Assembly (NCBI GenBank): GCA_039818205.1
Contig: JBCBUK010000002.1
Location: 384,001-448,000, forward strand
Direction of reading: 5' to 3'
DNA: 64,000 nucleotides
Source of the DNA: Verrucomicrobiota bacterium
GTDB taxonomy: Bacteria > Verrucomicrobiota > Verrucomicrobiia > Opitutales > Cerasicoccaceae
The notes under the pieces are model-generated. The model did no database searches, was not told the origin of the DNA, and worked only from the letters and a program-made list of their open reading frames with translations. Position 1 is the first letter of the stretch. Each line of letters opens with the position of its first letter. The position numbers and the translations under genes are program-made. Shown here piece by piece: positions 12,723 through 30,060 of this stretch.

Positions 12723-14030
12723 CTAGATGAATTCGTTGATCAGGTTCTCCAGGTATTCCTGGCGGCCGGAGAACGGAGCTGGGTCACCGTTGGCGAGTGC
12801 GAATTGCTCGAGTTCTGCGAAGCTGGCTTTTCCGGATTCGACCTTAGCGCCAAGTTCGCTATCCCAAGTGCTGTAACGCTCCTTGACGAATGCGTCGAGG
12901 CGACCGTCTTCGATGATTGCGGTAGCAATCTTGAGTCCGCGGGCGAAGGCATCCATTCCGCCGATGTGGGCGTGGAAAAGGTCAACGGGTTCGCAGGATT
13001 CGCGTCGGCGTTTCGCGTCGAAGTTCAAACCACCGGTGGTGAAGCCGCCCATTTTTAGGAGGACGAGCATGGTTTGGGTGGTCAGATAAAGATTGGTCGG
13101 GAATTGGTCGGTGTCCCAGCCAACATTTGCCGTGCCGTCGTTGGCGTCGATCGAACCCAGTGCGCCGGCGTTGGCAGCAGTGGTCAGCTCATGTTCCATC
13201 GTGTGGCCAGCGAGGGTCGCGTGGTTGGTTTCGATGTTGAGCTTAAAGTGATCGAGGAGATTGTATTCGCGGAGGAAGTTCAGGCAGGCGGCAGAGTCAG
13301 AATCATACTGGTGCGTGGTTGGCTCTTGCGGCTTTGGTTCAATGTAGAACTGACCTTCGAAACCGATCTCCTTCTTGTAGTCGACTGCCATGTGCAGGAA
13401 CGCGGCAAGGTGGTCGAGTTCGCGCTTCATGTTGGTGTTCAGGAGCGAGGTGTAGCCTTCGCGCCCACCCCAGAAGACGTAGCCTTCACCGTTGAGCATG
13501 TGGGTAACATCCATGGCCTTTTTCACCTGGGCTGCCGCGTAGGCATAGACGCCGAGGGAAGGCGAGGTTGCCGCACCGTGCATGTAGCGCGGGTTCACGA
13601 ACAAGCAGGCGGTTCCCCAAAGGAGCTTCTTGCCGTTGGCCTTTTGCAGCTCGGAGAACTCGGCGGCAATGGCGTCGAGGTTGGCTTGAGACTCCTTGAT
13701 GGAGTTGCCTTCAGCAACGACGTCGAAATCGTGGAAGCAATAGTAGTCGAGTTGGCACTTGTTCAGAAACTCGAAGAAAACGGAGGCCCGCTTCTTGGCA
13801 TTGTCGATGGAGTCGGTGCCATCGTCCCAAGGCATCTGCATGGTTCCAGCACCGAATGGATCTGCTCCGTTGCCGCGCATGGTGTGCCAATAGGCGCAGC
13901 CGAAGCGCAGGTGATCGCGCATGCTTTTGCCGCCAACGAGTTCGTCAGGATTGTAGTGCTTGAAAGCAAGCGGGTTCTTGCTGCTTGGTCCTTCGTATTG
14001 GACCGCGGGGATGTCGAAGTATTCGCTCAT
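12723..14030 (-). CDS. xylA: Xylose isomerase (class II)
   Basis: [63 protein letters not shown]. Confidence 0.98.
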
Positions 14031-14131
14031 AGGGTTGCGGTGGGTATTTATTGGATTGTGCGGCGGTAATCTAGAAAAATTCGTCCTTTTCGGAAACCGT
14101 AAAATGCGGTAAAGTTTTGTGTTTTTGCGAC

Positions 14132-15307
14132 ATGGTAGATCGATCCACTCCACCGAAGTATCACCGCATTGCGCTGGTGATGTCCGATGTCTTTGTTCGT
14201 CGGCTGGCCCCCGGCTTGGGTCGCCTGGTGGGAACGGAGCGTGATTTTTGGACCGTCGATATTAATCGTCCGGTAGGGGAGTTGCGCCGAATTCTTGCGG
14301 ATTGGGCTCCACAGGGTATCATCACGGAATCGCTCCCGGAGGTCACTGAGGTCATTCTCGAGTTGGGTTTTCCCACCGTCATCGTGGATTCCGACGAGTG
14401 CTTTCCCGGCGTCGTCAGTATGGATGTCGATGATTTCGCGATTGGCGAGCTCGCGGCTCGGCACCTGATTGACGCCGGGCATTCGCATTTCGCGTGCGTG
14501 CTGAATCGGACGCCCTACGCGGAGCAGCGGGGGCGAGGTTTTCAAGAAACCTTGGCGAAGCAGGGGTTTGACTGTTCGGTGTTTCGCCAGAAACAAACGG
14601 AGGCGAAGCACTACGCGGAGCACTGGCTCCAGCCAGAGCCGGATCTCGCACGCTGGTTGCGTTCGCTGGCGAAGCCGACCGCATTGCTCGCGGCTCACGA
14701 TCCGCTCGGGCGCGCCGTGTGTGAGACTGCGCGGAGGGAGGGAATCAGTGTCCCGGAAACCTTGAGCGTGCTGGGTGTCAACAATGACGAGATTGTCTGC
14801 AACCTCAGTGCGCCGCCACTGTCGAGCATTACGGTGCCTTGGGAGACGCTCGCTCATTGGTCGGTTGATTGGCTTGAGGCATTGATTGACCACGGAAGCT
14901 GCTCGGAAGATCCTATCTTAGCCCGGCCGGGTGGGGTGGTGGATCGGCAATCGACAACGCTCTTGGCCCTGGACGATCCACTGTTGGCGCGCGCGATCCA
15001 GTTCATTCGGGAGAACTTTGCCGAGGGCATTGGCGTTAAGGAAACTGCGGCTCAGCTCGGAGTAAACCGCCGCACCCTTGAGCGTCGGTTTCAGGAAGCG
15101 CTGAAGCGATCGCCACGGGAGGAGATCTTGCGACTGCGCCTCCGGGAGTCGCGGCGACTATTGCGGGAGACAGACTTGAGTATGCCCTGGATCGCGGAGC
15201 GTTGTGGGTTTCCGAACGCCGAGCGGTTTTGCGTAGCCTTCCGGCAGGCTGAAGGCGTGCCGCCGACCCGATATCGCTCGGCAGCCGCTCAAAGCCAAGC
15301 GGAATAG
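14132..15307 (+). CDS. xylR: XylR-type regulator (periplasmic-binding-fold sensor plus C-terminal AraC HTH)
   Basis: [39 protein letters not shown]; divergent from xylA. Confidence 0.88.
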
Positions 15308-15314
15308 GATTGGC

Positions 15315-16418
15315 CTAAACGGCGCTCAAGACCGTGCGGTTTGTGTCCGCAAGTGCCTGCGCCCGCAGTGAAAGCTCGGCCGCTTTGAAGGCATGCGCCT
15401 GAGTCATCGCGTTTTCGGTGCGGTTGAGGCAGTCGAGTATGAGTTGGCCAAAAAATGGAAACCCGACGTCACCCGCGACGGAGAGGTACTGCTCGCCGTC
15501 CTCGTTGCAAAGAATGATGTGGTCGCCGTTATCCGATTTGCCGAAGTCGAAGTATTTACGAATCTCGATCACACCCTTGGTTCCGGTGATGAAGGTCCGC
15601 CCATCGCCCCAGCCGCGCATCGTTGGTGGCGTGAACCAGTTGACCTTGGAAAAGCAGGATACACCGTTGTCGAGGAGCAGGACCGCGTCACCAACGTCCT
15701 CGAATTCGGGTTTGTCAGGATTGGAAAAATTGTCAACACGGGCGTGGAGGATCTCACCGCCTTGTTGGCGAGTGTAGTGCAGGAACTGCTCGAACTGGTG
15801 TGACGCGATGTCGGTCAGCACGCCGCCGTATTGCTCTTTGACGAAGAACCAATCTGGCCGACTTGGTTTCTTGAGACTGTGCGGTCCGAAGATTTCCATG
15901 TGGACGATGTCGCCGATCGCACCGTTCTGGATGAGTTCGTCGGCATACCACGCGGCTTCTGTGTGAATGCGCTCTGAAAAGTAGACCAGATATTTCTGGC
16001 CGGTGCGCTCTGCGATTTCACGGGCGTCGGCCAGTTGGTCCAAGGTGGTGAACGGGCACTTGTCGGTAAAGTAATCCTTACCGGCTTCCATCACCTGACA
16101 GCCGAGGGGGCCACGTAGGTTTGGAACTGCGGCAGCAGTAACGAGTTTGATGGACTCGTCGTCCAGGATGGCCTCCAGGGAACTGACAACCTGAGCCTCG
16201 GGATTGTGGGTTAGGAGGGAGTCAATCGTGCCCTGATTAGCCGGGTTGGGCTCGTAAATATATTTCAGTTGGCCACCGGCCTCGCGCAGCCCATTGCATT
16301 GACCATTGATGTGGCCATGGTCCAGGTGGGTTGCTGCGAAGAAGAATTCGCCAGGTGAAACAACTTTCTCAGTTCTCGCCGCGGTGGGCGCGTAATTCAT
16401 GCCGTCTTTTTCAGCCAT
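15315..16418 (-). CDS. Gfo/Idh/MocA family oxidoreductase
   Basis: HGHI, AGKDYFTDK(C)P, YGGVLTDIASHQ, WGDGR. Confidence 0.9.
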   Translation of the reverse strand: MAEKDGMNYAPTAARTEKVVSPGEFFFAATHLDHGHINGQCNGLREAGGQLKYIYEPNPANQGTIDSLLTHNPEAQVVSSLEAILDDESIKLVTAAAVPNLRGPLGCQVMEAGKDYFTDKCPFTTLDQLADAREIAERTGQKYLVYFSERIHTEAAWYADELIQNGAIGDIVHMEIFGPHSLKKPSRPDWFFVKEQYGGVLTDIASHQFEQFLHYTRQQGGEILHARVDNFSNPDKPEFEDVGDAVLLLDNGVSCFSKVNWFTPPTMRGWGDGRTFITGTKGVIEIRKYFDFGKSDNGDHIILCNEDGEQYLSVAGDVGFPFFGQLILDCLNRTENAMTQAHAFKAAELSLRAQALADTNRTVLSAV

Positions 16419-16470
16419 TCTTGTGGAGTTCCATTCGCTCAGGGGGGTGCTTGTTTAGAAAACAAACATA

Positions 16471-17886
16471 TTATTCGGCAAATGGAAACCCAAAAAACGA
16501 AGCGGCATTGTCATAGCAGACATCGCGGACCAGGCCGGAGTATAATTCCCATTCGTCGGGAATCAGTCCTTGTTCGACGTCTTTGCCAATCAGGTTGCAC
16601 AGGATCCGGCGGAAATATTCGTGACGCGCGAAGCTGAGGAAGCTGCGGGAATCGGTGAGCATGCCAACAAATTTACTCAGGAGGCCAAGATTGGAGAGCG
16701 TATTGAGTTGCCACTCCATGCCTTCTTTCTGGTCGAGGAACCACCAGCCGCTGCCGTATTGCATCTTGCCGGGAATCTCCGCGTCCTGGAAGCAGGCGAG
16801 CATGCTGGCAATCAGGTAGTTGTCGGTGGGATTCAAATTGTAGACGACCATCTTGGGGCAGGCGTTATCCTGATCCATGCGGTCGAGGTAGTTCTTTAGC
16901 GCCATCCCTTGTGGGTAGTCGGCCATGGTGTCAAAGCCACTGTCTGGTCCGAGTTGCTGAAACTGGCGGGTATTTACATTGCGAATGACGCCCGTGTGCA
17001 GCTGCTTGGTCCAGCCTTTCTCGGCGTCCAATGCGCCGAAGTAAACCATGAGGTTGCTGGCAAACTGATCCGCTTCTTCAGTTGAGATGGGTTTGCCATC
17101 GAGCACAGATTGATAAATCGCCGCGGCGCGCTCTTCGCTGATGAAATCGGCAAAGGGCTGGTGCATGCCATGGTCGGAAAGGCGACAGCCAACGGAATGG
17201 AAGAAGTCGTGGCGTTGCTTGAGGGCTTCCTTGAATTTATCGTAGCTAGAACAATCGATGTTGGAAACCGCTTCGAGCTTCTCGCGCCAGGGGTTGAAGA
17301 TTTCGGGCTGGCCGATCTTCAAGGCATTGTCGGGGCGGTAGGTTGGGAAGAGACCCGTGGAAACTGATGGGTCCGCGGCGGCAGCACGATGGTGGTCGAG
17401 GGTGTCGACGGGATCGTCCGTGGTGCAGGCGACCTTGACTTTAAACTTTTTCAAAAAGCCATTGGCGGAGAAGTCTTCTTGCTGAAGTTGCTCGTTGGCT
17501 CGCTCCCAGATTGATGGTGCCGACTGCTCGTTGATCAACTCGGTGATGCCGAATGCTCGTGCCATCTCAAGATGGCTCCAGTGGTATAGCGGATTGCGTA
17601 AGGTGGCCGGAATGGTGCGGCACCAAGCAATGAACTTATCATAGCCATCTCCGTCCCCCGTTACCAAGTGCTCTTCGACGCCATTGCACCTTAAGGCGCG
17701 CCACTTGTAGTGATCCTCTTCGAGCCATAGCTCGGCGAGGTTGCCGAATCGCCGATCGTTGGCGACATCTTGTGGTGGCAGATGGGAGTGGTAGTCAATG
17801 ATCGGGAGATCCTTGGCTACTTCATGATAGAGCCGCTTGGCGGTTTGACTTTGCAATAGAAAGTCATCGTGGATGAACGGGGGCAT
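16471..17886 (-). CDS. uxaC: Glucuronate (uronate) isomerase
   Basis: PIIDYHSHL, DHYKWRA, NPLYHWSH, CTTDDP, GSGWWFLD, GMLTDSRSFLS..RHEYFRR. Confidence 0.97.
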   Translation of the reverse strand: MPPFIHDDFLLQSQTAKRLYHEVAKDLPIIDYHSHLPPQDVANDRRFGNLAELWLEEDHYKWRALRCNGVEEHLVTGDGDGYDKFIAWCRTIPATLRNPLYHWSHLEMARAFGITELINEQSAPSIWERANEQLQQEDFSANGFLKKFKVKVACTTDDPVDTLDHHRAAAADPSVSTGLFPTYRPDNALKIGQPEIFNPWREKLEAVSNIDCSSYDKFKEALKQRHDFFHSVGCRLSDHGMHQPFADFISEERAAAIYQSVLDGKPISTEEADQFASNLMVYFGALDAEKGWTKQLHTGVIRNVNTRQFQQLGPDSGFDTMADYPQGMALKNYLDRMDQDNACPKMVVYNLNPTDNYLIASMLACFQDAEIPGKMQYGSGWWFLDQKEGMEWQLNTLSNLGLLSKFVGMLTDSRSFLSFARHEYFRRILCNLIGKDVEQGLIPDEWELYSGLVRDVCYDNAASFFGFPFAE

Positions 17887-17906
17887 CGGGAAATTCGATT
17901 GCAGGA

Positions 17907-18683
17907 TTATATGGTCATCGCGGCATAACCACCGTCGACCAACAGTTCGTGACCGGTAATGAATGAGCCGGCGTCGGAGGCCAAGAGCAAGGTTGCTCCC
18001 ACGAGTTCCTTCGATTCCCCAAAGCGCTTCATCGGTGTGTGTCCCATGATCTGCGCAACGCGCTCATCGCTAAGGATCTTGCGATTCTGCTCGGCCGGGA
18101 AAAACCCGGGGACGATTGTGTTCACCCGAATATTCTGTGTTGCCCACTCGCGGGCGAGGTTTTGCGAAAGGTTATGCACTGCAGCCTTCGAGGCCGAGTA
18201 GGTGAAGACGCGGGACAATGGCTTCACGCCGGACATGGAACCAACGTTGATGATGTTTCCACCACCGCGTTCGACAAAGTAGCGACCAAATACCTGGCTG
18301 GCGAAGAACACCGCCTTGAAGTTGATGTCCATGATCTTGTCGAACTCGTCTTCTTCAATTTCGAGGAACGGTGTTGGGCTATTGACGCCAGCGCCATTGA
18401 CCAGGATGTCGACCTGGCCGCTCTTGCTAACGACGCGATCAAGGAGATCGGTCAGTGCATCCTTGGAGCCCACGTCGCAGGGTTCGAAATAGCTCTTACC
18501 GTGGAATTGGTGGATCTTGGCCAGGCGTTCCTGGGCCTTCACTTCGTTGCGACCGACGAGCACGACCGTGGCGCCCGCACCAGCAAGGCCTTCGGCCATC
18601 GCACCGCACAACTCACCGGTGCCACCAATGACTACAGCGACTTTGCCTTGCAATGAAAAGAGTTCAGATAGGTATTCAGACAT
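17907..18683 (-). CDS. SDR oxidoreductase, D-mannonate oxidoreductase (UxuB, SDR type)-like
   Basis: [21 protein letters not shown], and [21 protein letters not shown], typical of SDR fructuronate reductases; 20 bp upstream of uxaC. Confidence 0.8.
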
Positions 18684-18700
18684 GATAAAAATTGGTTAAG

Positions 18701-18726
18701 AAAAAGGAGGCCGTTGCCGACCTCCC
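18701..18726 (-). terminator. Terminator-like hairpin inside the operon, after the kinase gene
   Basis: Minus strand reads GGAGGTCG-gcaa-CGGCCTCC-TTTTT. Confidence 0.7.
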
Positions 18727-18742
18727 TTCAGTTAAATGGTAT

Positions 18743-19840
<1,098 letters not shown>

Positions 19841-19852
19841 GGTACTTATTGT

Positions 19853-20497
19853 TTAATTTTTCATTTGGCTGATGAATGTTTCCGCCTCATTGATGGCGGC
19901 ATTCATCTCGTCGATCAGGGCGGCGACGTCTCGTTCCACAGTAGTCACTTCGTTCTTGAGTGATGCGATCGCCCGCGCATTCAAGTTGTGCTTAAGGAAG
20001 AGAACTTGGTCGCGGAAGGCTGCGAGAACCGGCGTCATCTTTTGCTCGGCCCGATTCATGGCATTGATAAGGCGTGTGTACTCGCGCCGTGTTTGCACGA
20101 GTTGCTGTTCGCTGGCCCGACGAAGGTCACTGCGGGTATATTCATTGAGTTCGTCCTGCCATTCGTTGAACAAGGATTCCGCCACATCTTCAACTGCCTC
20201 GATACGGTCGCGAACGTCGTCTGCCCGTGACTCGCAACGCTCATACTGGCCCTTCAGGCTGTCGTAGCGTTTCTCCAATTCACCACCATCAATGGCGACG
20301 GTTGCCCTGAAGGCCTCGAGGGCATCTTCGAATTGTTCCTTGGCGTCCTCTTGGGTTTCCTGGGCGGCTTCCACGCGGTCGACCAGTAGCTCCCGCTTTT
20401 GGATGCCCACTTGCTCGAGGGCACTGTAATAAACGCTCGAGCATCCGCTGAGCAGGCCTGCTAACAGGGCAAAGACGATGATGTTAACGCGATTCAT
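19853..20497 (-). CDS. DUF2959 family coiled-coil lipoprotein
   Basis: Lipobox LLSGC, YY..LE..G..KRELLVDRV, DQVLFLKHNLNARAI. Confidence 0.85.
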   Translation of the reverse strand: MNRVNIIVFALLAGLLSGCSSVYYSALEQVGIQKRELLVDRVEAAQETQEDAKEQFEDALEAFRATVAIDGGELEKRYDSLKGQYERCESRADDVRDRIEAVEDVAESLFNEWQDELNEYTRSDLRRASEQQLVQTRREYTRLINAMNRAEQKMTPVLAAFRDQVLFLKHNLNARAIASLKNEVTTVERDVAALIDEMNAAINEAETFISQMKN

Positions 20498-20506
20498 TCC
20501 TGATAC

Positions 20507-21601
20507 TTAGACCGCTGTTTCAAATTCCGCAAGGTTCCAGGTCGCCGCGCCACACTCTTCAGCAAGCTCATTGAAGCCGCCGATCTCAGCTTCCGAGAAC
20601 AGGAGACCACCGTTCTTGGTGCTTCGCTCAGCTGCTTGTGCCTCGATCTGACCTGGGAGCAAGCAATGCTCGTTGCCGTGGCCGAGGATGTCGGCCAGGA
20701 CTGCCTTGACGTTTTCCGCTGAGCTTCGACCCAGTGCAAATTCGCCCGCCATGGCGTCCGGATGGATGACCTGGAAATAGAAGGCTGGAGTGTGTTTCTC
20801 CTCCGGTTGTTTTTCCCAGCGGGAGCGCAGCGTTGGCAAGCTGCCGCCAATAAATGCCGCAACGATTTCGTTGATCAAAGAAAGACCGTAGCCCTTGTGG
20901 GCACCAAAAGTGGTTAGTGCGGTAACGGCGTTGGGATCCGTGGTTGGGTTGCCATTGGCATCGACTCCCGCGCCTTCAGGCAGAGATTGGCCTTCACGGG
21001 CAAACTGCTGCACACGGCCCATGGCGACAACCGAGGTGGCCCAGTCGATCACGATCGGGAAGCCAACAGCGTCGGTGGTTGGGAAGCCCCAGGAATGAGG
21101 GTTGGTGCCAAGGGTTGGCGTCTTGCCCTTAAACGGAACAACTTCGGCCAGAGCGGCGGTGCAGTTGGTGTAGGCAATGTAGCCGCGGCGAGCCGCATCC
21201 ATCACGTAGCCGCCGCCCCAGAGATAGTGAAAGGCGTTGTCCACGGAGACCTGACCAATGCCGTACTTGTCGGCGAGTTCAATCGCGGTTTCGATCGCAT
21301 CGTAAGCCGTTGCTTGGCCGAGCTTGCGGTTGGCGTTCCAGATCTGCGAGGCCTCGAATCGAGTTTCCTTCTTTTCGATAACGGCGCCGGGCTTGCAGCC
21401 GTCGGCAGCGGATCCAAAGAGGTGGTCGAGGTGCAGCGCTTTCAAAGCGTTGTGTGTGCGGATGCCGTGCTTGGACGCGTAAGCGGCAAACTTGGCCGCA
21501 GCGTGGGCCTCGGACGCGTCAAAACCGCGATGCAGGTAGGCGGCTTCGACCAGTGCGTTATGCTTTTCTTCGGAGATAATGTAGAAGGTTTCTGTGCTCA
21601 T
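20507..21601 (-). CDS. Ldh_2 family (type-2 L-malate/L-lactate dehydrogenase-like) oxidoreductase
   Basis: GIRTH, ELADKYGIG, H..GGGY, LGTNP, DWATS, GAHKGYGLS, LLPG. Confidence 0.9.
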   Translation of the reverse strand: MSTETFYIISEEKHNALVEAAYLHRGFDASEAHAAAKFAAYASKHGIRTHNALKALHLDHLFGSAADGCKPGAVIEKKETRFEASQIWNANRKLGQATAYDAIETAIELADKYGIGQVSVDNAFHYLWGGGYVMDAARRGYIAYTNCTAALAEVVPFKGKTPTLGTNPHSWGFPTTDAVGFPIVIDWATSVVAMGRVQQFAREGQSLPEGAGVDANGNPTTDPNAVTALTTFGAHKGYGLSLINEIVAAFIGGSLPTLRSRWEKQPEEKHTPAFYFQVIHPDAMAGEFALGRSSAENVKAVLADILGHGNEHCLLPGQIEAQAAERSTKNGGLLFSEAEIGGFNELAEECGAATWNLAEFETAV

Positions 21602-21719
21602 GGAAATGGAGTTTAATTCGTGGGTGTAAGGGATTGTGTTTTTTGGCAACGAGTGGAATTTGGCAAGCGCTTGGGCCAGTCTGAGCTGGATCGGCGGATA
21701 GAGGTTGTTTTGGTCCGGT

Positions 21720-22262
21720 TCATCGTTTGCCGGTTTTGCTCGGCATGAGTTCCGAGTCTTTCACCAGATGATAGAGGTTGCCGCTCCCAATGCGGTAGGG
21801 CACTGGCAGGCGGGCGAAGGCGGTTACGGCTTCACCGTTTTGCAACGGTGCGGAGAATTTGCGCTTACTGATCTCTTCGCGGATGACCTCGGCGACGGAT
21901 TCGTGGTCGGCTTCATCGATTTGGCAATCAATCACGCGGCCGCGCTCATCAACGGTGACCAAGAGGATGGTTTCGCCGACATAGTTTTTCGTCCGCATGG
22001 TGTCGGGAAACTCAATTGGCCCGCGATCAACCAAGACGAACGGTGCATCCAACTCTGAGAGGGGGACTGCGTTCAAATATTTCTGCCGAACAGTTTCGTC
22101 GTCGATCACGGTGGCCTGCCGAACCGGCTCCACCGTCACCGCGTCTTGCTCACCCATGGGTTCGGCCTCCGATTCGGCGAAGGGAACCCAGCTGGGCGTT
22201 TCGCATCCGCTAATGAGCAGTGCGGTTCCGGTAAGGAGAAGACTGGGCAGCAAGTGTTTCAT
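21720..22262 (-). CDS. Lipoprotein with a TonB C-terminal-like domain
   Basis: Lipobox LISGC; P.FP..R...GETILLVTVDERGRV...KFSAPLQNGEAV. Confidence 0.7.
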   Translation of the reverse strand: MKHLLPSLLLTGTALLISGCETPSWVPFAESEAEPMGEQDAVTVEPVRQATVIDDETVRQKYLNAVPLSELDAPFVLVDRGPIEFPDTMRTKNYVGETILLVTVDERGRVIDCQIDEADHESVAEVIREEISKRKFSAPLQNGEAVTAFARLPVPYRIGSGNLYHLVKDSELMPSKTGKR

Positions 22263-22264
22263 GA

Positions 22265-23239
22265 CTATACCGATGGAATCGGTACGTCGTTGACTTGGGC
22301 AAGTGGTTTTTCGCCCTTGAGCATCAATAGTAGATTCTCTGTCGCCATGGTTGCTTGGCGGACAACGGACTCATAGGTGCGACTGCCGATATGCGGTGTG
22401 ACAATGCAATTTTTCGCCGAAAGCAGCGGGTGGTCCGCTGGCGGTGGCTCTTGGTCGAGCACGTCAGTGCCATAGCCGCCAACCTTACCGCTCTCGAGCG
22501 CTGCCGCGATGTCGGCGGTGTTGACGAGCTCACCCCGGGCGCAATTGAGAATGACGACGCCGTCTTTCATCTTGCTGATCGAGTCTGCGCTGATCAGGTC
22601 GCGAGTCTCTTCGGTCAAGTTGGAGTGGAGACTGATAATATCGGCTTGTTCAAAAATCTCATTTACGTCCGTGGCGCGCTGAATGCCTTGGGCGGCGGCA
22701 AAGTCCTCTGGCCAATAGACGTCGAACGCAATTACCTTCAGGCCAAAGGCTTTTGCACGGATCGAAACCTCGCGGCCAATGCGGCCGAGGCCGATGATGC
22801 CAATCGTCTTACCCATGATCTCATGGCCGGTCAGGCGCTTCCAGTTACCAGCAGCAGTGAAGTTGGCTTCCTCGACCAAATGGCGGAAGAGCGCGAGCAT
22901 CAACGCAAATGTGTGCTCAGCCACGGTGGTGTGATTCACGCCAGGGCAAAAGCTCAGCGGAATGCCCATTTCGGTGCAGGTCGCAACGTCAATCTTGTCA
23001 ACGCCGATGCCGTATTTGGCAATGAGCTTTAGGCGGGGCGCGGCTTTCTCCAGGACAGCCTTGGAGATGACATCGTCACCGCAAAGAAAGGCGTCAAAAT
23101 CGCCGGCGAGTTCAAGCATGCGCTCTTCGCTAAGGGGGCCGCGTTCGCGCACAATCTCGGCGCCGCTGGATTCAAGCAACTCATGATGAGGGCCTGGCGT
23201 ATCCTGATAGGAGGTGGTGGAAAGAAGGATTCGAGTCAT
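22265..23239 (-). CDS. D-isomer-specific 2-hydroxyacid dehydrogenase (SerA-like, no ACT domain)
   Basis: YGIGVDKID, VAEH, GIIGLGRIG, LNCARG, DVLDQEP, TPHIGS; 324 aa. Confidence 0.92.
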   Translation of the reverse strand: MTRILLSTTSYQDTPGPHHELLESSGAEIVRERGPLSEERMLELAGDFDAFLCGDDVISKAVLEKAAPRLKLIAKYGIGVDKIDVATCTEMGIPLSFCPGVNHTTVAEHTFALMLALFRHLVEEANFTAAGNWKRLTGHEIMGKTIGIIGLGRIGREVSIRAKAFGLKVIAFDVYWPEDFAAAQGIQRATDVNEIFEQADIISLHSNLTEETRDLISADSISKMKDGVVILNCARGELVNTADIAAALESGKVGGYGTDVLDQEPPPADHPLLSAKNCIVTPHIGSRTYESVVRQATMATENLLLMLKGEKPLAQVNDVPIPSV

Positions 23240-23267
23240 GGTTAATCGAGGTAAGGCGGAGAGGTAT

Positions 23268-23283
23268 CCAACACGTGTAGGGT
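23268..23283. promoter_or_regulatory. Putative LacI operator (copy 1) upstream of the sugar-acid operon
   Basis: CCAACACGTGTAGGGT with palindromic core ACACGTGT; identical to 25657-25672; just downstream of a TTGAC (-35-like) on the minus strand. Confidence 0.75.
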
Positions 23284-23437: not shown

Positions 23438-23788
23438 ATGTCAGCAGTAAGGCTACTCATTAATTCGACGAAAGGTTTAGGGGTTGTTGTCCCGTTCATC
23501 GTCTTTGGTGGGTTCTACATTGCTTATAGTTTTTCAACGCGTTTGGAGGAAGATTCGTCATTGCAGATGGCAATTTTTCCAGTTTCGCTCTTGCTGATTT
23601 GTGGCTGCCTTTGGATCCTTGGCAAAACGTTGAATCGGGACGGTGCTAGCAGTGAAGGAGGGGTGCTTAGTGCCCGCCATACATTTCTTAGCGTAAATAT
23701 CGAACGTTTCGCGCTGATTATCGGTTTTGTGGGAGTTTTTTTATATCTAAGCCTGTGGGGAGCCCGATGGTATTTGGGAACAAGCTGA
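23438..23788 (+). CDS. Hypothetical 3-TM membrane protein (AT-richer segment)
   Basis: 116-aa ORF with hydrophobic segments and H(T)FL.V..E..A.I. Confidence 0.6.
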   Translation: MSAVRLLINSTKGLGVVVPFIVFGGFYIAYSFSTRLEEDSSLQMAIFPVSLLLICGCLWILGKTLNRDGASSEGGVLSARHTFLSVNIERFALIIGFVGVFLYLSLWGARWYLGTS

Positions 23789-23835
23789 GGTCGTAATTGC
23801 ATATTCTTGCTAATCAGGCGAGAAGCGACTAGGCG

Positions 23836-24531
23836 ATGCAGACCATGGCAAACCGATACATGAGGAAGATTGCGCCCGACAAACTTCCTGTAGAGGCGGT
23901 TGAAGAGCAGGCAAAGGCTTTATTTGATTCATTGAGCGAGATTCTCAAACTTAGGCTGCGCGATCGACATGGTTGGGTGGTTCATGAAAGCGAGAACGAA
24001 TACGCCATTGAGGCGGTTAATGGTAGTGTTACCTGCTGCTTAGAAATTGAGCCTGTCTTGGAGCTCGAGCCTGTCTTGGGGCTCGAGCCTGTTGTAGGCG
24101 GAGGCTTGGATCGGATGGTCTCCATTAATGTTTATATGACGTCCACGAGCAAGGAACGAGGCGTGGCCGATAAATATCGCTCGGGAGTGGCTGAGCGAAC
24201 CCAACACACTATTGCTGTTGTTTCTGGTTTGGGGTTGGGCGTATTAGGTATGGTATTTGAAGTATCCTTTCTGCGACGAACCTTCGAGTATGTACCTTCT
24301 CCTTTCTTGGTCGTGTTTGGCTGGCTCGGCTGTGGGTTCGTGGGCTACCTGATTGGCAGCAAAATCGGAAAATTTTTCGATAAGCAGAAGTTCGATATGA
24401 CCTTCGACGAAGAAGTGAATGTAGAAGTCTTCAAAAGCGATTGGGAGAGCTTTATCGATGCCGCCTCCCCAGTTGTTGATCAGTTTTCTGCGAGTTTTGA
24501 AAGCGTGCCCTCTAGTCCAGCAATCGATTAA
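23836..24531 (+). CDS. Hypothetical 2-TM membrane protein (AT-richer segment)
   Basis: 231-aa ORF with two hydrophobic segments; no family recognised. Confidence 0.6.
   Translation: MQTMANRYMRKIAPDKLPVEAVEEQAKALFDSLSEILKLRLRDRHGWVVHESENEYAIEAVNGSVTCCLEIEPVLELEPVLGLEPVVGGGLDRMVSINVYMTSTSKERGVADKYRSGVAERTQHTIAVVSGLGLGVLGMVFEVSFLRRTFEYVPSPFLVVFGWLGCGFVGYLIGSKIGKFFDKQKFDMTFDEEVNVEVFKSDWESFIDAASPVVDQFSASFESVPSSPAID
24049..24098 (+). repeat. In-frame 18-bp tandem repeat (about 2.7 copies)
   Basis: GAGCCTGTCTTGGAGCTC / GAGCCTGTCTTGGGGCTC / GAGCCTGTTGTAGG, encoding EPVLEL EPVLGL EPVVG. Confidence 0.85.
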
Positions 24532-24562: not shown

Positions 24563-25612
24563 TCACTGCGCCCGCGTCGAATCGCGTTCGATGAGGCGGG
24601 GTTTGATCAAGGTCTGTTTGGGCTTCGGGGAGTCTTCGTCAGATTCCAGGAGCTGCTTCATGCGCTCGGCCACGCCAAGCATCAGGTGCTCCGCGCATTG
24701 ATCAATCGTTGTTAGCGCTGGTTGCAGGTGTTCGGTCACTTCGAGGTTATCGTAGCCAACAACCGATACATCGCGCGGAGTTTCGACACCGGCTTCCCGC
24801 AAGCGATTGATCGCGCCAATGGCGACCCGGTCGTTAACCGCGATAACGGCTGTGGGCAGCGATTTGTCGGACTCGAGCAAGCGCTCCGCGAGCGTTCGAC
24901 CGTAGTTGTAGTCGTGGAGCGGGTGGCCTTCGATGAAGAGCTGGACCGTGTGTTTCTCGATATCAATGCCCAGGCGCTTACAATTGCGCTGGAAGGCGGG
25001 CCAACGAAATGCACCAAAGGGATTCACGGGATCGATGCCCAACACCGCGTAGCGGCGGTGCCCCAAACCGTAGAGATGCTCAAGCACGAGCTTCATTGAA
25101 ATTGGCCGGTCAATCGACATCTGCTCGCCGTCGACTTTGGTTTCCGGGTCGACCCAGATGACTGGTCGTCCCTGGCTGAGACAGCCAGCGAGCACCTCGT
25201 CGGTCTCGGTCAATTGCGAGCCGATGAGCACCACACCTTCGACCTGCAGGGATAGAAAATTTCGCAGAGCGGCGCGCTCGCCGTCCTTGTTGCCGTTGGT
25301 CAACTCGATCAGAGCGTGGTAACCAAGCTCGCGGAGTGACTGCTGAAGTAGCGATACCTTGCGGGCCAGAATCGGCGTTTCCAATTCTTGAAAGCAAACG
25401 CCGATAATGCCTGTGCGGCCCCCGCGTAATCCGCGGGCGAGGGCATTGGGTTGGAAGCCGAGCTCATCCATCGCCTTGTGCACCCGTTCAACGGTCTCGG
25501 GCAGGATGCCTGGATGCCCGTTGAGCACACGCGAAACCGTCCACCTTGAGAGTCCGAGGTGTCGCGCGAGTTCCGCCGTTGTTGGCGAAGAGCTGGAGCG
25601 TTGCGATGCCAA
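24563..25612 (-). CDS. LacI family transcriptional regulator
   Basis: ELARHLGLSRWTVSRVLNG HTH, FQPNALARGL hinge, VSVVGYDN, PALTTIDQ, LIERDST. Confidence 0.95.
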   Translation of the reverse strand: MASQRSSSSPTTAELARHLGLSRWTVSRVLNGHPGILPETVERVHKAMDELGFQPNALARGLRGGRTGIIGVCFQELETPILARKVSLLQQSLRELGYHALIELTNGNKDGERAALRNFLSLQVEGVVLIGSQLTETDEVLAGCLSQGRPVIWVDPETKVDGEQMSIDRPISMKLVLEHLYGLGHRRYAVLGIDPVNPFGAFRWPAFQRNCKRLGIDIEKHTVQLFIEGHPLHDYNYGRTLAERLLESDKSLPTAVIAVNDRVAIGAINRLREAGVETPRDVSVVGYDNLEVTEHLQPALTTIDQCAEHLMLGVAERMKQLLESDEDSPKPKQTLIKPRLIERDSTRAQ

Positions 25613-25656
25613 AAAGTGTCAGCGTTCGGGGATTGGTCAGCGTTTCAATCCCTTAG

Positions 25657-25672
25657 CCAACACGTGTAGGGT
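25657..25672. promoter_or_regulatory. Putative LacI operator (copy 2, autoregulatory)
   Basis: CCAACACGTGTAGGGT about 45 bp upstream of the lacI start, next to TTGACG on the minus strand. Confidence 0.75.
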
Positions 25673-26707: not shown

Positions 26708-27775
26708 TTAGTGCGCGGCGGGTTGGTCGAGGTATTGTTTGAAGGCTTCTTTATCGGCGGCCTTCATGTAGGCTTCGTTGCCGGTAATAATTCCGGCGTC
26801 GAGCTGCTTCTTGATCGAGAAATCCATCATGCACATACCTTGGGCGATGCTACTCTCGATGATTCCGCGGATGGCACTGGTTTTGCCCGAGCGAATGGTG
26901 TTCGGTAGCGCGTCGTGCTTGAGGAGGATTTCGTGGACCGCGACCCGGCCCTTGGGCACACGTTTGCAAAGCAGTTGAGAGACCACGCAGGTTAGGCAAC
27001 CGGAAAGCATGATGCGGATTTGGCCCTGTTCCTCGGCCGGAAAGGCGTCAATGATCCGGTCAACGGTTTTCGGGGCATTGTTGGTGTGCAAGGTTCCGAA
27101 AACGAGCATGCCCATCGAGGCACAGCCCAGGGCAAGTTTGATGGTTTCCAGTTCCCGCATTTCGCCGACCAGAATAATGTCGGGGTCGGCTCGCATCGCT
27201 CCCCGGAGCGCATTGGCAAATGAGTCACTGTGCTCGCCGACTTCCCGGTGAACGATGACGCTTTTCTTGTTGGGGTGCACGAACTCGATCGGGTCTTCGA
27301 TCGTGATAATATGCTTCTGGAAATTGTCGTTAATGTAGTCGATCATCGCGGCAAGTGTGGTTGACTTGCCGCTGCCGGTTGGCCCCGTGACGAAGACCAA
27401 ACCTTCTTTGTAGGCGCAGACTTCCCGTAGTATTTCGGGGAGTTTCAAGGTGTCAAACGACAGGATCTCAGCGGGGATCTGACGAAATACAGCGGCTTGA
27501 CCCCAGTGATTGTAGAAGTAGCTCCCACGAAAGCGGGCCAGCCCCGGGATCTCGTATGCCAGGTCGAGGTCACGCGTTTCCAGGAAGTGATTCCACTTCT
27601 GCTCGCTCGTGATCTGACTGAGCAACGTCGACATCTGTTTGGCGGATATAACCTGATCGGTCAGTGGCATAACCGAGCCTGAGGCGCGGATCTTGGGAAC
27701 CGAGCCCACCGATAGGTGAAGGTCGGAGCCATCGTTATTTAACATGCCGGAGAGTAGTGCGTCGATTTCTGCCAT
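26708..27775 (-). CDS. pilT: Type IV pilus retraction ATPase PilT
   Basis: SDLHL, GPTGSGKSTT, TIEDPIE, RADPDIILVGEMR, GTLHT. Confidence 0.93.
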   Translation of the reverse strand: MAEIDALLSGMLNNDGSDLHLSVGSVPKIRASGSVMPLTDQVISAKQMSTLLSQITSEQKWNHFLETRDLDLAYEIPGLARFRGSYFYNHWGQAAVFRQIPAEILSFDTLKLPEILREVCAYKEGLVFVTGPTGSGKSTTLAAMIDYINDNFQKHIITIEDPIEFVHPNKKSVIVHREVGEHSDSFANALRGAMRADPDIILVGEMRELETIKLALGCASMGMLVFGTLHTNNAPKTVDRIIDAFPAEEQGQIRIMLSGCLTCVVSQLLCKRVPKGRVAVHEILLKHDALPNTIRSGKTSAIRGIIESSIAQGMCMMDFSIKKQLDAGIITGNEAYMKAADKEAFKQYLDQPAAH

Positions 27776-27829
27776 GGCCTGAGTCTAAAAAATGAAGATA
27801 TCGGTTCGAATAAGTGCTTAGTGGCGTTC

Positions 27830-28195
27830 TTAGCCAGCGGATTCCTGAGTGAAGCGGATGGAGTTGCTATCGTTGTCTTTAATATACATCTCGCGATTGC
27901 CCCAGGTCTGGTCGGTGGGTTCCAAGTGGATCTTGATCTGACGCTCGGAGAACTCGCGAAAAAGCTCGTCGACGTTGTCGACCGAAAGGTAGACCGCTGA
28001 TCCAAAGACGCCGTCGCCGGAGAACGAGGAGATGTGGAGCCATTGACCATCGCGTCGCAACCCCATGTAAGTTGGGTCTGGGTCGGGGCCAGGGGTGTAG
28101 GCCCACTCACGCGTGAACCCGAGGCCATCGCAATAAAACGCCGTCGCTTCAGTGATTTTTGATACGCGGATGACGGGTATGGTCGCGTGAATCAT
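27830..28195 (-). CDS. VOC/glyoxalase (bleomycin-resistance-like) protein
   Basis: IPVIRV..AFY.DGLGF..W, LHISS, PTDQTWGNRE.YIKD. Confidence 0.85.
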   Translation of the reverse strand: MIHATIPVIRVSKITEATAFYCDGLGFTREWAYTPGPDPDPTYMGLRRDGQWLHISSFSGDGVFGSAVYLSVDNVDELFREFSERQIKIHLEPTDQTWGNREMYIKDNDSNSIRFTQESAG

Positions 28196-30060
28196 CGTCC
28201 GAACAATCCTTTCTTTTTGGCAGGTTCGTTCATCATGGGCGTTGCTGCTGTTGCTGCACCACCACCGCGGACTTGATTCTTCAGCGGGTCGCTGCGCAGG
28301 TTCGCAATCGCCACCTCAGCCGTAATCCTGCCGGCCTGCCAAAGATTCATGATGGAATTATCCATCAATACCATTCCATCGCGCCGACCGGTTTCGATAA
28401 TGTTACTCAACCCGTCGGATTTGCCTTCGCGAATCAGGGCAGAGACCGCCGTGTTCTTCAAGAGTAGTTCATAACCCATGGCGATTCCGCCATCACTAGC
28501 GGGCAACAAGCGTTGACAGAGAATGCCCCGCAAACTTTCTGCCACCATAGCCCGAATCTGAGGTTGTTGGGCGGGTGGAAAAACGTCGAGCAGGCGATTC
28601 AGGGTCGTTGCCGCATCACTGGTGTGCATGGTTCCGATCACGAGGTGCCCCGTCTCGGAGGCACTGATCGCCATCTCAATGGTTTCCAGGTCGCGCATTT
28701 CACCAATGACGATGATGTCTGGGTCTTGCCGCAGTGCACCTTTCAGGGCACTCTTAAACGATTTTGTGTGCGGCCCGACACCCCGTTGGGTGATCTGGCA
28801 TTGGACCGACTGCTGAATGACTTCGATCGGCTCCTCAACGGTGATCACGTGGTCCTGCCGCGATTGGTTGAGAATATTGACCAGGGCGGATAGGGTGGTG
28901 GTTTTTCCGGCACCTACGGGTCCCGTTACGAGAATCAAGCCATTGTGGTAGGCGGTCAGCTGAGTAATGGTTTCGGCACCCTGGGGGTCGAAACCCAAAT
29001 CCGCGAGCGTGGGGATCTGGGCTGGTACGATCCGATAGGTCCCCGCAAAACCGTCTTTGTGGATCATGAAGTTGACCCGGAATCGTTGGCCGGAGTCGAA
29101 GGGCATTGCGAAATCGTAGTCACGCTCGGCCAGGAAATATTCCTGTTGCTCCTCGCTGAGGACCGCAAGGTTCATCGCCTTTGACAATTCGCGGGTAACG
29201 ACCGTTTGCGAAACGTATTCCACCGCACGGTTGCGGCGGATGAACAAGCGGCTGTCGGCCGAGATATGTACATCACTCGCACCATATTGAGCAGATTGGA
29301 CCAGTAAGCCCAGGACAGCTTGCCGCACCTGTGCGCGGTTGTTGGGGTCAAGCTGAGCGGGATCAGGCCACATTGGCTGGATGCCTTGGGTTTTGATGAT
29401 GTTCTCTTTTGGTTTCGGACGCTCAGACGGCTCCGCCGGTTGGGCGGGCATGGCTCCCTGCATCTGCTTTAGTTGCTCGGCATGTTCAGCCATACTGGCC
29501 ATGGCCTGTTGCGCCTCGGCCATGTTGAAATTTTCAGCCGGCTTCACCTTGTCCATGTCAACGCCCTTGACGGCGTTTTTAGGCGCTTTGGTGCCGGAGG
29601 CTTGCCAAATCGCACTCACGGCCGCTGCCAGGTCATCCGAAGCTGCTTGGCCTTCCGGGTTGGCTTGGGGTTCTTTCGGCGCTGGTGCGGGCGTTTCTTT
29701 GCGCAGACTGATTTTCGGACGTTGGGCCTGTTCAGTTTGAGCATCGGCTTCGGCTTCTTCTTCCAGCGCTTCAAGCTGTTTCAATGCGATACTAGGACGT
29801 GAGGCGCCGGGCTTCTTCTTGATCTCCGCAAACGGGTCAAATGGTGGCTCGTCGCCGTTCTCATCCATTTCGACAGCTTGATCGAGCAATTCCTGCATGT
29901 CGTCGAAGTTATCGTAGATGTCTTTGTCCAGGATCGCCTGGGCGAACTCCAGAAGTTCGACATCATCCGACAGTTCTTTTTTTAGTCGTTGGCAGTTCTT
30001 AACGTTGAGCACGCCATTGCCAATACACAGGCAGGCAAACAGTTTGATGTCCTTAGTCAT
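28192..30060 (-). CDS. PilT/PilU family ATPase with a ~240-aa N-terminal extension
   Basis: ASDVHI, GPVGAGKTT, TVEEPIE, LRQDPDIIVIGEMRD, ETGHLVIGTMHT, AVSALIRE. Confidence 0.92.
   Translation of the reverse strand: MTKDIKLFACLCIGNGVLNVKNCQRLKKELSDDVELLEFAQAILDKDIYDNFDDMQELLDQAVEMDENGDEPPFDPFAEIKKKPGASRPSIALKQLEALEEEAEADAQTEQAQRPKISLRKETPAPAPKEPQANPEGQAASDDLAAAVSAIWQASGTKAPKNAVKGVDMDKVKPAENFNMAEAQQAMASMAEHAEQLKQMQGAMPAQPAEPSERPKPKENIIKTQGIQPMWPDPAQLDPNNRAQVRQAVLGLLVQSAQYGASDVHISADSRLFIRRNRAVEYVSQTVVTRELSKAMNLAVLSEEQQEYFLAERDYDFAMPFDSGQRFRVNFMIHKDGFAGTYRIVPAQIPTLADLGFDPQGAETITQLTAYHNGLILVTGPVGAGKTTTLSALVNILNQSRQDHVITVEEPIEVIQQSVQCQITQRGVGPHTKSFKSALKGALRQDPDIIVIGEMRDLETIEMAISASETGHLVIGTMHTSDAATTLNRLLDVFPPAQQPQIRAMVAESLRGILCQRLLPASDGGIAMGYELLLKNTAVSALIREGKSDGLSNIIETGRRDGMVLMDNSIMNLWQAGRITAEVAIANLRSDPLKNQVRGGGAATAATPMMNEPAKKKGLFGR

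Follow-up and report, generated by a model that had tools for sequence, protein, structure and literature searches.

Hexuronate routes that end at 6-phosphogluconate, and enzyme sets that invert a 2-hydroxy acid, have been described in several organisms. For Thermotoga maritima a hexuronate-to-pentose-phosphate shunt has been proposed that is made up of UxaC, UxaE, UxaD, GntE (= LarAH20) and GntK (PMC6978723, PMC7583248), in which the activity of GntE on mannonate and gluconate was shown (PMC7583248). In the galacturonate pathway of Lactobacillus suebicus a mannonate kinase acts first and is followed by a 6-phosphomannonate 2-epimerase, both shown in extracts (PMC6978723). The fungal D-glucuronate pathway runs from L-gulonate through 2-keto-L-gulonate to L-idonate, and then through 5-ketogluconate to gluconate (PMC5814732, PMC6353982). 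The KguK-KguD route of Pseudomonas and Cupriavidus reaches 6-phosphogluconate by a PfkB kinase and then a reductase (PMC6651773), and the SlcC/ComC sulfolactate racemase consists of two dehydrogenases that invert a 2-hydroxy acid via the 2-keto acid (PMC12421959). For Planctomycetes, a genome paper assumes the classical hexuronate route (PMC5673643). We analyzed a 64,000-nucleotide stretch (the window) of the genome of a Verrucomicrobiota bacterium (assembly GCA_039818205.1), in which an operon on the minus strand combines genes for a D-2-hydroxyacid dehydrogenase (D2H; 22,265–23,239), an Ldh_2-family dehydrogenase (20,507–21,601), a PfkB kinase of the KdgK family (18,743–19,840), a short-chain dehydrogenase/reductase (SDR; 17,907–18,683) and the uronate isomerase UxaC (16,471–17,886), and which may encode a further route of this kind.

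In the shunt that we propose, UxaC and the SDR would make D-mannonate from the uronic acid, the Ldh_2 enzyme would oxidise C2 of D-mannonate to give 2-keto-D-gluconate, the kinase of the operon would phosphorylate this compound, D2H would reduce 2-keto-6-phosphogluconate to 6-phosphogluconate, and a separately encoded Gnd would take the latter into the pentose phosphate pathway. C2 has the S configuration in mannonate and the R configuration in gluconate, so that an L-specific Ldh_2 and a D-specific D2H would be the right pair; we infer the substrates of all operon enzymes, and with them an opposite C2 stereospecificity of the two dehydrogenases on one 2-keto acid. Residue Asp173 of D2H (98 of 115 orthologues) and the PG-Q-x-E motif of Ldh_2 presumably indicate NAD(H). 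As both dehydrogenases thus look NAD(H)-linked, inversion alone would lie near equilibrium, and an ATP-consuming step between the two would draw the unfavourable oxidation forward. That the operon feeds a shunt to 6-phosphogluconate, in whatever order, appears very likely to us, and to the combination of C2 inversion at the mannonate level with phosphorylation by the operon's own kinase we give a probability of roughly 60%. Within the latter, placing the kinase between the two dehydrogenases, which is the exact order of the initial annotation, is a tentative choice at a little under even odds; a kinase acting last, on gluconate, is rather improbable, and one acting first, on mannonate, decidedly so.

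The core of D2H, Ldh_2, PfkB, SDR and uxaC is conserved and is widespread in Verrucomicrobia and in some Planctomycetes. Loci were compared for the best 80 of at least 590 confirmed Ldh_2 relatives, which belong to Opitutales, other Verrucomicrobia and Pirellulaceae, with single records from Fibrobacteria and Woeseiaceae; many of these loci end at contig edges. A D2H orthologue is present in 71 of the 80 (directly upstream in 68, fused in 1), an SDR of the window type (at least 60%) in 46 and a more distant one in 7, PfkB in 43 and uxaC in 36. Less frequent are lacI (10), gnd (8), uxaE (6) and eda (4, plus 2 weak matches), and uxuA occurs in none. We also surveyed 91 genomes of the order Opitutales, including the source genome (G000; 4.85 Mb, 99.97% complete); labels beginning with G, L, C and f stand below for genomes, loci, contigs and families. 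Ldh_2 is found in 52 and uxaC in 64 of them. Later gene searches were made on 68 genomes, namely the 52 with Ldh_2 and 16 with uxaC but without Ldh_2, the 23 with neither being dropped. All 52 Ldh_2 genomes have a D2H orthologue, versus 1 of the 16 others, and the pair is concordant in 67 of 68 genomes, which bears out the idea that the two genes are conserved together as a unit in hexuronate loci. In two cases D2H and Ldh_2 are fused, a single frame containing the Pfam domains of both. Ldh_2 identity across loci of the Planctomycetes-Verrucomicrobia-Chlamydiae group is 66–79%, the closest named orthologues among the matches listed come from Cerasicoccus species (84–86% identical), and more than 4,000 proteins match at E≤1e-50. 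Close orthologues exist in cultured Cerasicoccus, Ruficoccus, Coraliomargarita and Pelagicoccus strains, which makes the shunt directly testable.

The initial annotation had suggested looking for an anticorrelation of UxuA with the two dehydrogenases. We counted as canonical UxuA the full-length matches above 335 bits, plus one split gene. Among the Opitutales genomes with uxaC, canonical UxuA is indeed rarer when the pair is present (5 of 48) than when it is not (8 of 16), and it is absent from 47 of the 52 pair genomes. In 22 of these 52 the UxuA-like genes are short paralogues only, and 25 have no UxuA-family match at E≤1e-30; upon subtracting three of the 25 with ManD-like matches (E≤1e-75), there remain 22 of 52 genomes with uxaC and no recognisable mannonate dehydratase. 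The short paralogues amount to 4–12 each in G142, G184, G197, G169, G153 and G172 (frames of ~320–400 aa, 110–215 bits), and one of them adjoins a second uxaC in G206. Four pair genomes (G142, G153, G184 and G172) keep the pair and a kinase, and in two of them uxaE is divergent from D2H. Neither pair nor canonical UxuA was found in eight genomes (G026, G174, G197, G068, G156, G169, G189 and G202): G026 has uxaC-uxaB-uxaA, G174 a ManD-like gene near uxaC, and G197 retains D2H without Ldh_2, near transposase-like sequence. Genome G068 carries an SDR-PfkB-gnd-LarA-uxaC-uxaE-TRAP operon (L097, G068:C3:94000-112000), whose LarA has 4NAR as its sole PDB match and Glu-Val after the catalytic His; 4NAR is T. 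maritima GntE2, and Glu-Val at this position is given as the GntE signature (PMC7583248, PMC11770544). GntE-like LarA occurs in 3 of the 91 genomes.

A second line of evidence comes from an operator-like motif. A gene for a LacI-family regulator (24,563–25,612, minus strand; Pfam LacI and Peripla_BP_3) lies upstream of the operon and is the likely repressor of the operon and gnd; it is predicted to bind a palindromic motif (core ACACGTGT). Neither this gene nor the two copies of the motif figured in the initial annotation. In the window, this motif is located ~30 bp before the D2H start (23,267–23,282) and ~47 bp before lacI (25,656–25,671). Between lacI and the operon lie two open reading frames of 116 and 231 aa on the plus strand (23,438–24,531), which match no Pfam family and are outside the system; in G206, G194 and G137 lacI directly precedes D2H without them. 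The motif precedes lacI, D2H or uxaC in loci of several families; it is seen upstream of D2H in 20 of the 112 loci that have room for it, and its core precedes lacI orthologues in many loci. We scanned the source genome with a matrix trained on 38 sites, all from other genomes and none from gnd, for which the training minimum is 17.9 bits. Three sites fall in the training range: those of the operon (24.6 bits), gnd (22.9) and lacI (22.5). The next-best site scores 15.7 bits, and the upstream regions of the gluconokinase-like gene, uxuA, eda and uxaE score 4.4, 1.9, −8.3 and −11.7. A site at C1:520087 fits a loose form of the pattern, is absent from the matrix sites of at least 11 bits and was discarded. 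The initial annotation had regarded a co-regulated uxuA and eda elsewhere in the genome as an observation that would speak against it; both genes are present, on other contigs, neither linked to the upper pathway genes nor preceded by their motif.

Fifteen further genomes were then scanned whole with the exact 12-base pattern. Together with the source genome, 15 of 16 carry it at the pair operon or at lacI (G163 and G198 by a variant), the exception being G131. Just before gnd, the exact motif is found in 10 of the 15 operator-bearing genomes, and G140 has a gnd site with one mismatch; gnd sites were assigned in five family members from their distance to the Pfam domain, equal to that in the source genome, and in four by alignment. 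No exact motif lies directly before the eda, uxuA or gntK coordinates in the operator-bearing genomes scanned. As the exact pattern is no commoner than a reversed control, the evidence lies in its position and not in its count. The exact core is absent from all 31 gnd-upstream stretches (of 40, ~650 bp each) that come from genomes with no operator seen at the pair, some of these 31 gnd genes being possibly operon-internal. In G137 and G181 the motif heads an unlinked two-gene unit that includes an orthologue of the Gfo/Idh/MocA oxidoreductase gene of the window (15,315–16,418, minus strand; 3 of the 80 loci), an accessory regulon member; this conserved two-gene unit (L241, L242, L112, L113) belongs to the regulon, and the window keeps only its second gene.

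The end point of the pathway looks like 6-phosphogluconate, since gnd shares the operator-like motif and Edd is lacking; on both counts this part of the initial annotation is supported. Edd above cut-off is found in 0 of the 68 genomes. In turn, gnd is present in 52 of 52 pair genomes, 8 of 8 with neither pair nor UxuA and 4 of 8 with UxuA only, and in five genomes it lies inside the pair operon. Three pair genomes (G150, G152 and G023; 96–99% complete) have no Eda-family match at E≤1e-3 and keep the pair, the kinase, uxaC and gnd. One of them, G152, also has no UxuA-family or ManD-like match and carries D2H-Ldh_2-PfkB-SDR-uxaC in one run. Elsewhere (L123 and L124, of G134 and G178) eda and gnd occur together in the pair operon of genomes without Edd; the aldolase could there be supplied with lyase-derived KDG (2-keto-3-deoxygluconate) or could cleave 2-keto-6-phosphogluconate.

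The identity of the individual enzymes agrees with these roles to different degrees. The kinase (Pfam PfkB) has T. maritima KDG kinase as its best PDB match (2afb, E 2e-56), and orthologues at least 65% identical are present in 50 of 52 pair genomes and in 7 of 8 UxuA-only genomes. Its membership of the KdgK family and the presence of orthologues in uxuA-kdgK-eda operons make it very likely that it takes KDG too; 2-ketogluconate is predicted as a second substrate. Both Thermus and Sulfolobus tokodaii have KDG kinases that phosphorylate 2-ketogluconate as well, KguK requires a keto acid, and the substrates of KDG kinases and KguK overlap (PMC6651773). A kinase tree does not split by gene context. 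Residue 122 is the best-separating column of the alignment (it is Pro in 72 of the 84 pair-linked kinases and Ser in 10 of the 11 from genomes without the pair), but as a specificity switch it was rejected: the Ser predicted for the eda-linked copy of G182 was not found, both copies having Pro, G026 has Pro, eight pair-linked kinases have Ser, and half of the Ser cases come from one family, so that the residue is a lead only. The PfkB protein of G068 is 44% identical to the window kinase, and kinases about as distant lie next to the pair in G153 and G172. As G068 has no GntK match, its PfkB may phosphorylate an aldonate, with gluconate or mannonate as candidates, which keeps alive the orders in which the kinase acts last or first.

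D2H (Pfam 2-Hacid_dh) is predicted to be a 2-keto-6-phosphogluconate (or 2-ketogluconate) reductase. Its catalytic residues R235, E264 and H283 are invariant, as are T8-T9-S10, R287 and R294, and R135 is conserved in 113 of 115 orthologues; these residues are compatible with a phosphorylated substrate and are no proof of it. The possibility, raised at the outset, that this enzyme is the SerA of the cell is unlikely: D2H has 324 aa, and a separate long-form paralogue of 535 aa is probably SerA, judged by length and similarity. D2H scores 265 bits against the SerA model TIGR01327 (cut-off 454), and 114 of 115 orthologues have Gly, and not the Arg of SerA, at the P. horikoshii R-S-K position. Against the GhrB model it scores 162 (cut-off 492), no model named KguK or KguD is among the NCBIfam matches, and the probable 2-ketogluconate reductase of B. 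subtilis (9m0t, E 2.5e-38) is one match among many equals. Ldh_2 (Pfam Ldh_2), the predicted D-mannonate 2-dehydrogenase, has 364 aa from the ATG at 21,601, the same length as the database protein. It stays below the cut-off of every named subfamily (ComC, AllD, YiaK and HcxB/YbiC-like; 110–133 bits versus 316–500), with a best PDB sequence match at E 1e-32 and 21–28% identity in structural alignments. Structure models and fold searches confirm the folds and give no substrate, the Ldh_2 model being of modest confidence (pLDDT 69). By its best matches the SDR is a sugar-acid C5 reductase, likely a fructuronate reductase (UxuB/UxaD role): its best NCBIfam match is the D-mannonate oxidoreductase PRK08277 (251, cut-off 281), and its top PDB matches include KduD and gluconate 5-dehydrogenases. 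The uxaC gene is above its NCBIfam cut-off and is the sole copy in the source genome.

Protein abundances are available for Verruconatronum alginivorum (Table S3 of PMC13274419), in which five genes (pgaptmp_002136-002140) have the same order and matching lengths; orthology was judged from order, length and annotation only. According to that table, all five proteins are detected, at 0.10–0.24% on alginate and 0.15–0.29% on sucrose, with no differential change. Gnd reaches 0.14% on alginate and 0.27% on sucrose, gluconokinase 0.004 and 0.009%, and three mannonate dehydratases are at 0/0.002% or undetected. On mannose the table lists zero for Ldh_2, UxaC and also Gnd, and the growth conditions listed are without free uronate.

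Several observations weigh against mannonate-level inversion with the operon's own kinase. The source genome has an intact uxuA (C19:2099-3148, above the TIGR00695 cut-off) and an eda (C11:84782-85435, above the TIGR01182 cut-off), which means that the shunt is not its sole possible route. Eda is present in 49 of 52 pair genomes; it lies in the pair operon of family f42 (D2H-Ldh_2-PfkB-SDR-gnd-eda-uxaC-TRAP) and of G198, and behind gnd in G140. Kinase orthologues sit with uxuA and/or eda in G167, G132, G158, G026 and G068, four operator-bearing genomes (G185, G182, G195 and G148) have no gnd site, and the nearest solved structures are 21–35% identical, giving no substrate. As for the displacement of UxuA, the Fisher p of 0.002 is too favourable, as a single family accounts for five of the eight UxuA-only genomes, the threshold for canonical UxuA was chosen after the score gap had been seen, the profiling across relatives was of UxuA and ManD, the short low-scoring paralogues may be real dehydratases, and ManD is above cut-off in 2 of 52 pair genomes. 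Four pair genomes (those with divergent uxaE included; L108-L111) have no uxaC match, and in G165 a GntE-like LarA coexists with the pair.

These points can be read in other ways. The pair could be the equivalent of GntE, converting mannonate through 2-ketogluconate into gluconate for a separate gluconokinase, with the PfkB protein serving only as KDG kinase for lyase- or UxuA-derived KDG. The occurrence of GntK/IdnK, which tracks the pair (34 of 52 pair genomes, 30 of them above cut-off, versus 2 of 16 others), fits free gluconate, the kinase orthologues do serve uxuA/eda operons, and the scheme agrees with that of T. maritima as given in PMC6978723. Yet 18 of 52 pair genomes have no GntK/IdnK match, and in five of these that were tested no FGGY gluconokinase is above cut-off; gntK lacks the exact motif in the scanned genomes, the three genomes in which no Eda was found keep the kinase, and the gluconokinase of V. 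alginivorum is ~25–60 times scarcer than the operon proteins. We consider this version unlikely. It is quite unlikely, too, that the operon is the upper classical pathway plus KdgK, with the pair acting on another substrate or in reverse, so that acids of the gluco series such as gluconate, or 5-ketogluconate from L-iduronate or L-guluronate, would yield mannonate for UxuA. The uxuA and eda of the source genome, the reversibility of the reactions and the pair genomes without uxaC would suit it, but not the lack of canonical UxuA in nearly all pair genomes, the 22 without a recognisable mannonate dehydratase, or a motif that is common to gnd and not to uxuA.

Inversion might also take place at the 5-keto level, from fructuronate to 2,5-diketogluconate and 5-ketogluconate, which the SDR as gluconate 5-dehydrogenase would reduce to gluconate on the way to 6-phosphogluconate. 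These are the same three redox steps in another order, and both the PDB matches of the SDR and its score below the UxuB cut-off would allow it. In family f63, however, the same SDR type occurs with uxaC in the absence of the pair, in one case next to a ManD-like gene, and in G020 an over-cut-off PRK08277 (UxuB-type) gene takes the SDR place beside the pair; we hold this order to be very improbable. Hardly credible, finally, is that the pair makes gluconate and an unrecognised dehydratase turns it into KDG for the kinase and Eda. The KdgK-family kinase of the operon and the eda of some pair operons speak for it; against it, only one IlvD/Edd-family gene, presumably IlvD, is found in 34 of 52 pair genomes, the strong enolase-family matches in G008 and in G020 belong to distinct aldehyde dehydrogenase-enolase-aldolase-kinase clusters, G173 has a weak match only, and gnd shares the motif. 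Mannonate-level inversion with phosphorylation by the operon kinase is the reading that we retain. Its extension would be that a metal-free shunt of Ldh_2, KdgK and D2H, under a LacI regulon including gnd, has taken the place of mannonate dehydratase in the majority of Opitutales and probably also in many other Verrucomicrobia and Planctomycetes; Ldh_2 would then be a first D-mannonate 2-dehydrogenase and KdgK would serve as a 2-ketogluconate kinase. We put this forward tentatively, at somewhat less than an even chance.

For the source genome itself, the initial annotation was right that uxuA, uxaA and eda are missing from the window, and whole-genome family searches place all of them on other contigs only. 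Its label of a dehydratase-free pathway does not hold for this organism, which is probably able to use KDG as well: all five members of the classical set (UxaC-UxuB-UxuA-KdgK-Eda) are present, with the SDR just under the UxuB cut-off. The shunt would there coexist with the classical UxuA-KDG-Eda branch, the kinase being common to both. The genome further encodes a second aldolase of the Eda family, which lies next to an enolase-family dehydratase, as well as two members of the UxaA/GarD family, uxaE, and two gnd-family genes, gnd being above cut-off. Searches of this genome found no Mannitol_dh-type UxuB/UxaB, no Edd, no ManD match at E≤1e-75 and no match to GntE-type LarA with the G068 LarA as query. 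Its gluconokinase-like (GntK-like) gene, located after a GH57 gene, does not reach the cut-off. The uxuA gene is solitary among unrelated dus/folE2 genes, and canonical uxuA is confined to 2 of 6 family members, a distribution suggestive of patchy gain or loss. Aldehyde dehydrogenase-enolase(-aldolase-kinase) clusters at G000:C6 ~202500-205100 and at L180 and L181 resemble what we take to be 3,6-anhydrogalactose catabolism.

All eight co-oriented genes originally reported were recovered on the minus strand with their positions and Pfam families unchanged, the intergenic gaps in operon order being 2, 118 (70 if TTG 21,649 is the start), 9, 12, 59, 20 and 52 bp. Two of them appear to be passengers. 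The TonB_C-domain lipoprotein-like gene (21,720–22,262; Pfam TonB_C) and the DUF2959 lipoprotein-like gene (19,853–20,497; Pfam DUF2959) were rejected as pathway members, as neither occurs in any of the 80 loci; among the listed loci, a short distant TonB-like frame is present only in G206, and DUF2959 is clustered only in two same-genus genomes. Directly after the operon (12,723–15,307) are xylA, a xylose isomerase gene above cut-off, and an XylR-type AraC regulator gene; xylA adjoins Ldh_2 or uxaC in several relatives, a neighbourhood that suggests glucuronoxylan use, and a matrix scan of its upstream region in the source genome gave no operator-like site. At 26,708–30,060 we noted by eye two PilT/PilU-like ATPase genes, the second with a long N-terminal extension. 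Promoter and terminator scans gave results at or below chance, and a plasmid search returned only relatives less than 60% identical.

Verrucomicrobia and Planctomycetes are major degraders of uronic-acid-rich polysaccharides, and many of them have no recognisable mannonate dehydratase, a hole that the shunt would fill for 52 of the 64–68 hexuronate-type Opitutales genomes sampled. If it operates, two orphan subfamilies would gain functions, as D-mannonate 2-dehydrogenase (Ldh_2) and 2-keto-6-phosphogluconate reductase (D2H), together with a new LacI regulon. If it has replaced mannonate dehydratase as widely as proposed above, the main route of these bacteria for the uronic acids of pectin, xylan and ulvan would lose C1 as CO2 and supply NADPH and pentose phosphate, not pyruvate and triose, and current genome models for them would be wired wrongly. 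The shunt would also offer engineers a nickel-free, redox-balanced way of channelling pectin sugars to the pentose phosphate pathway, an aim already voiced for L. suebicus. Among the papers listed by a literature search, with subscription journals outside its reach, there was no account of the D2H/Ldh_2 pair in hexuronate catabolism, and the term 'mannonate 2-dehydrogenase' does not occur in the L. suebicus paper.

The end-to-end logic is known, while the predicted Ldh_2 activity and the regulon are apparently undescribed; the genomic support for the proposed shunt is good. A likeness to the pair itself is SlcC/ComC, as ComC is an Ldh_2 member and SlcC, we assume, a D-2-hydroxyacid dehydrogenase, and the window has the same pairing; there, however, the substrate is a C3 sulfonate that feeds SuyAB, and the window Ldh_2 scores 133 against a ComC cut-off of 500. 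Like KguK-KguD, the window is predicted to use a PfkB kinase and then a reductase, but its kinase is nearest to KdgK, and 2-ketogluconate would come from mannonate and not from periplasmic gluconate oxidation. The fungal pathway also places a redox C2 inversion within a glucuronate route and ends at 6-phosphogluconate, but it begins with a reduction, runs through the C5-epimeric series and has a C2-oxidising enzyme without assignment in PMC5814732. In L. suebicus, an isomerase upper route is likewise joined to 6-phosphogluconate without a dehydratase; unlike in the window, the kinase comes first, the epimerase has no assigned gene and the strain is described as lacking uxuA, kdgK and kdgA (PMC6978723). 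The T. maritima shunt shares with the proposed one the inversion of mannonate at C2, entry as 6-phosphogluconate and a predicted exit via Gnd, whose gene in the source genome is preceded by the motif, and in G068 a GntE-like LarA stands in the place of the pair. Where T. maritima employs one nickel-pincer enzyme, the window would use two unrelated NAD-type dehydrogenases with a free 2-keto acid predicted between them, and a KdgK-family kinase in place of GntK.

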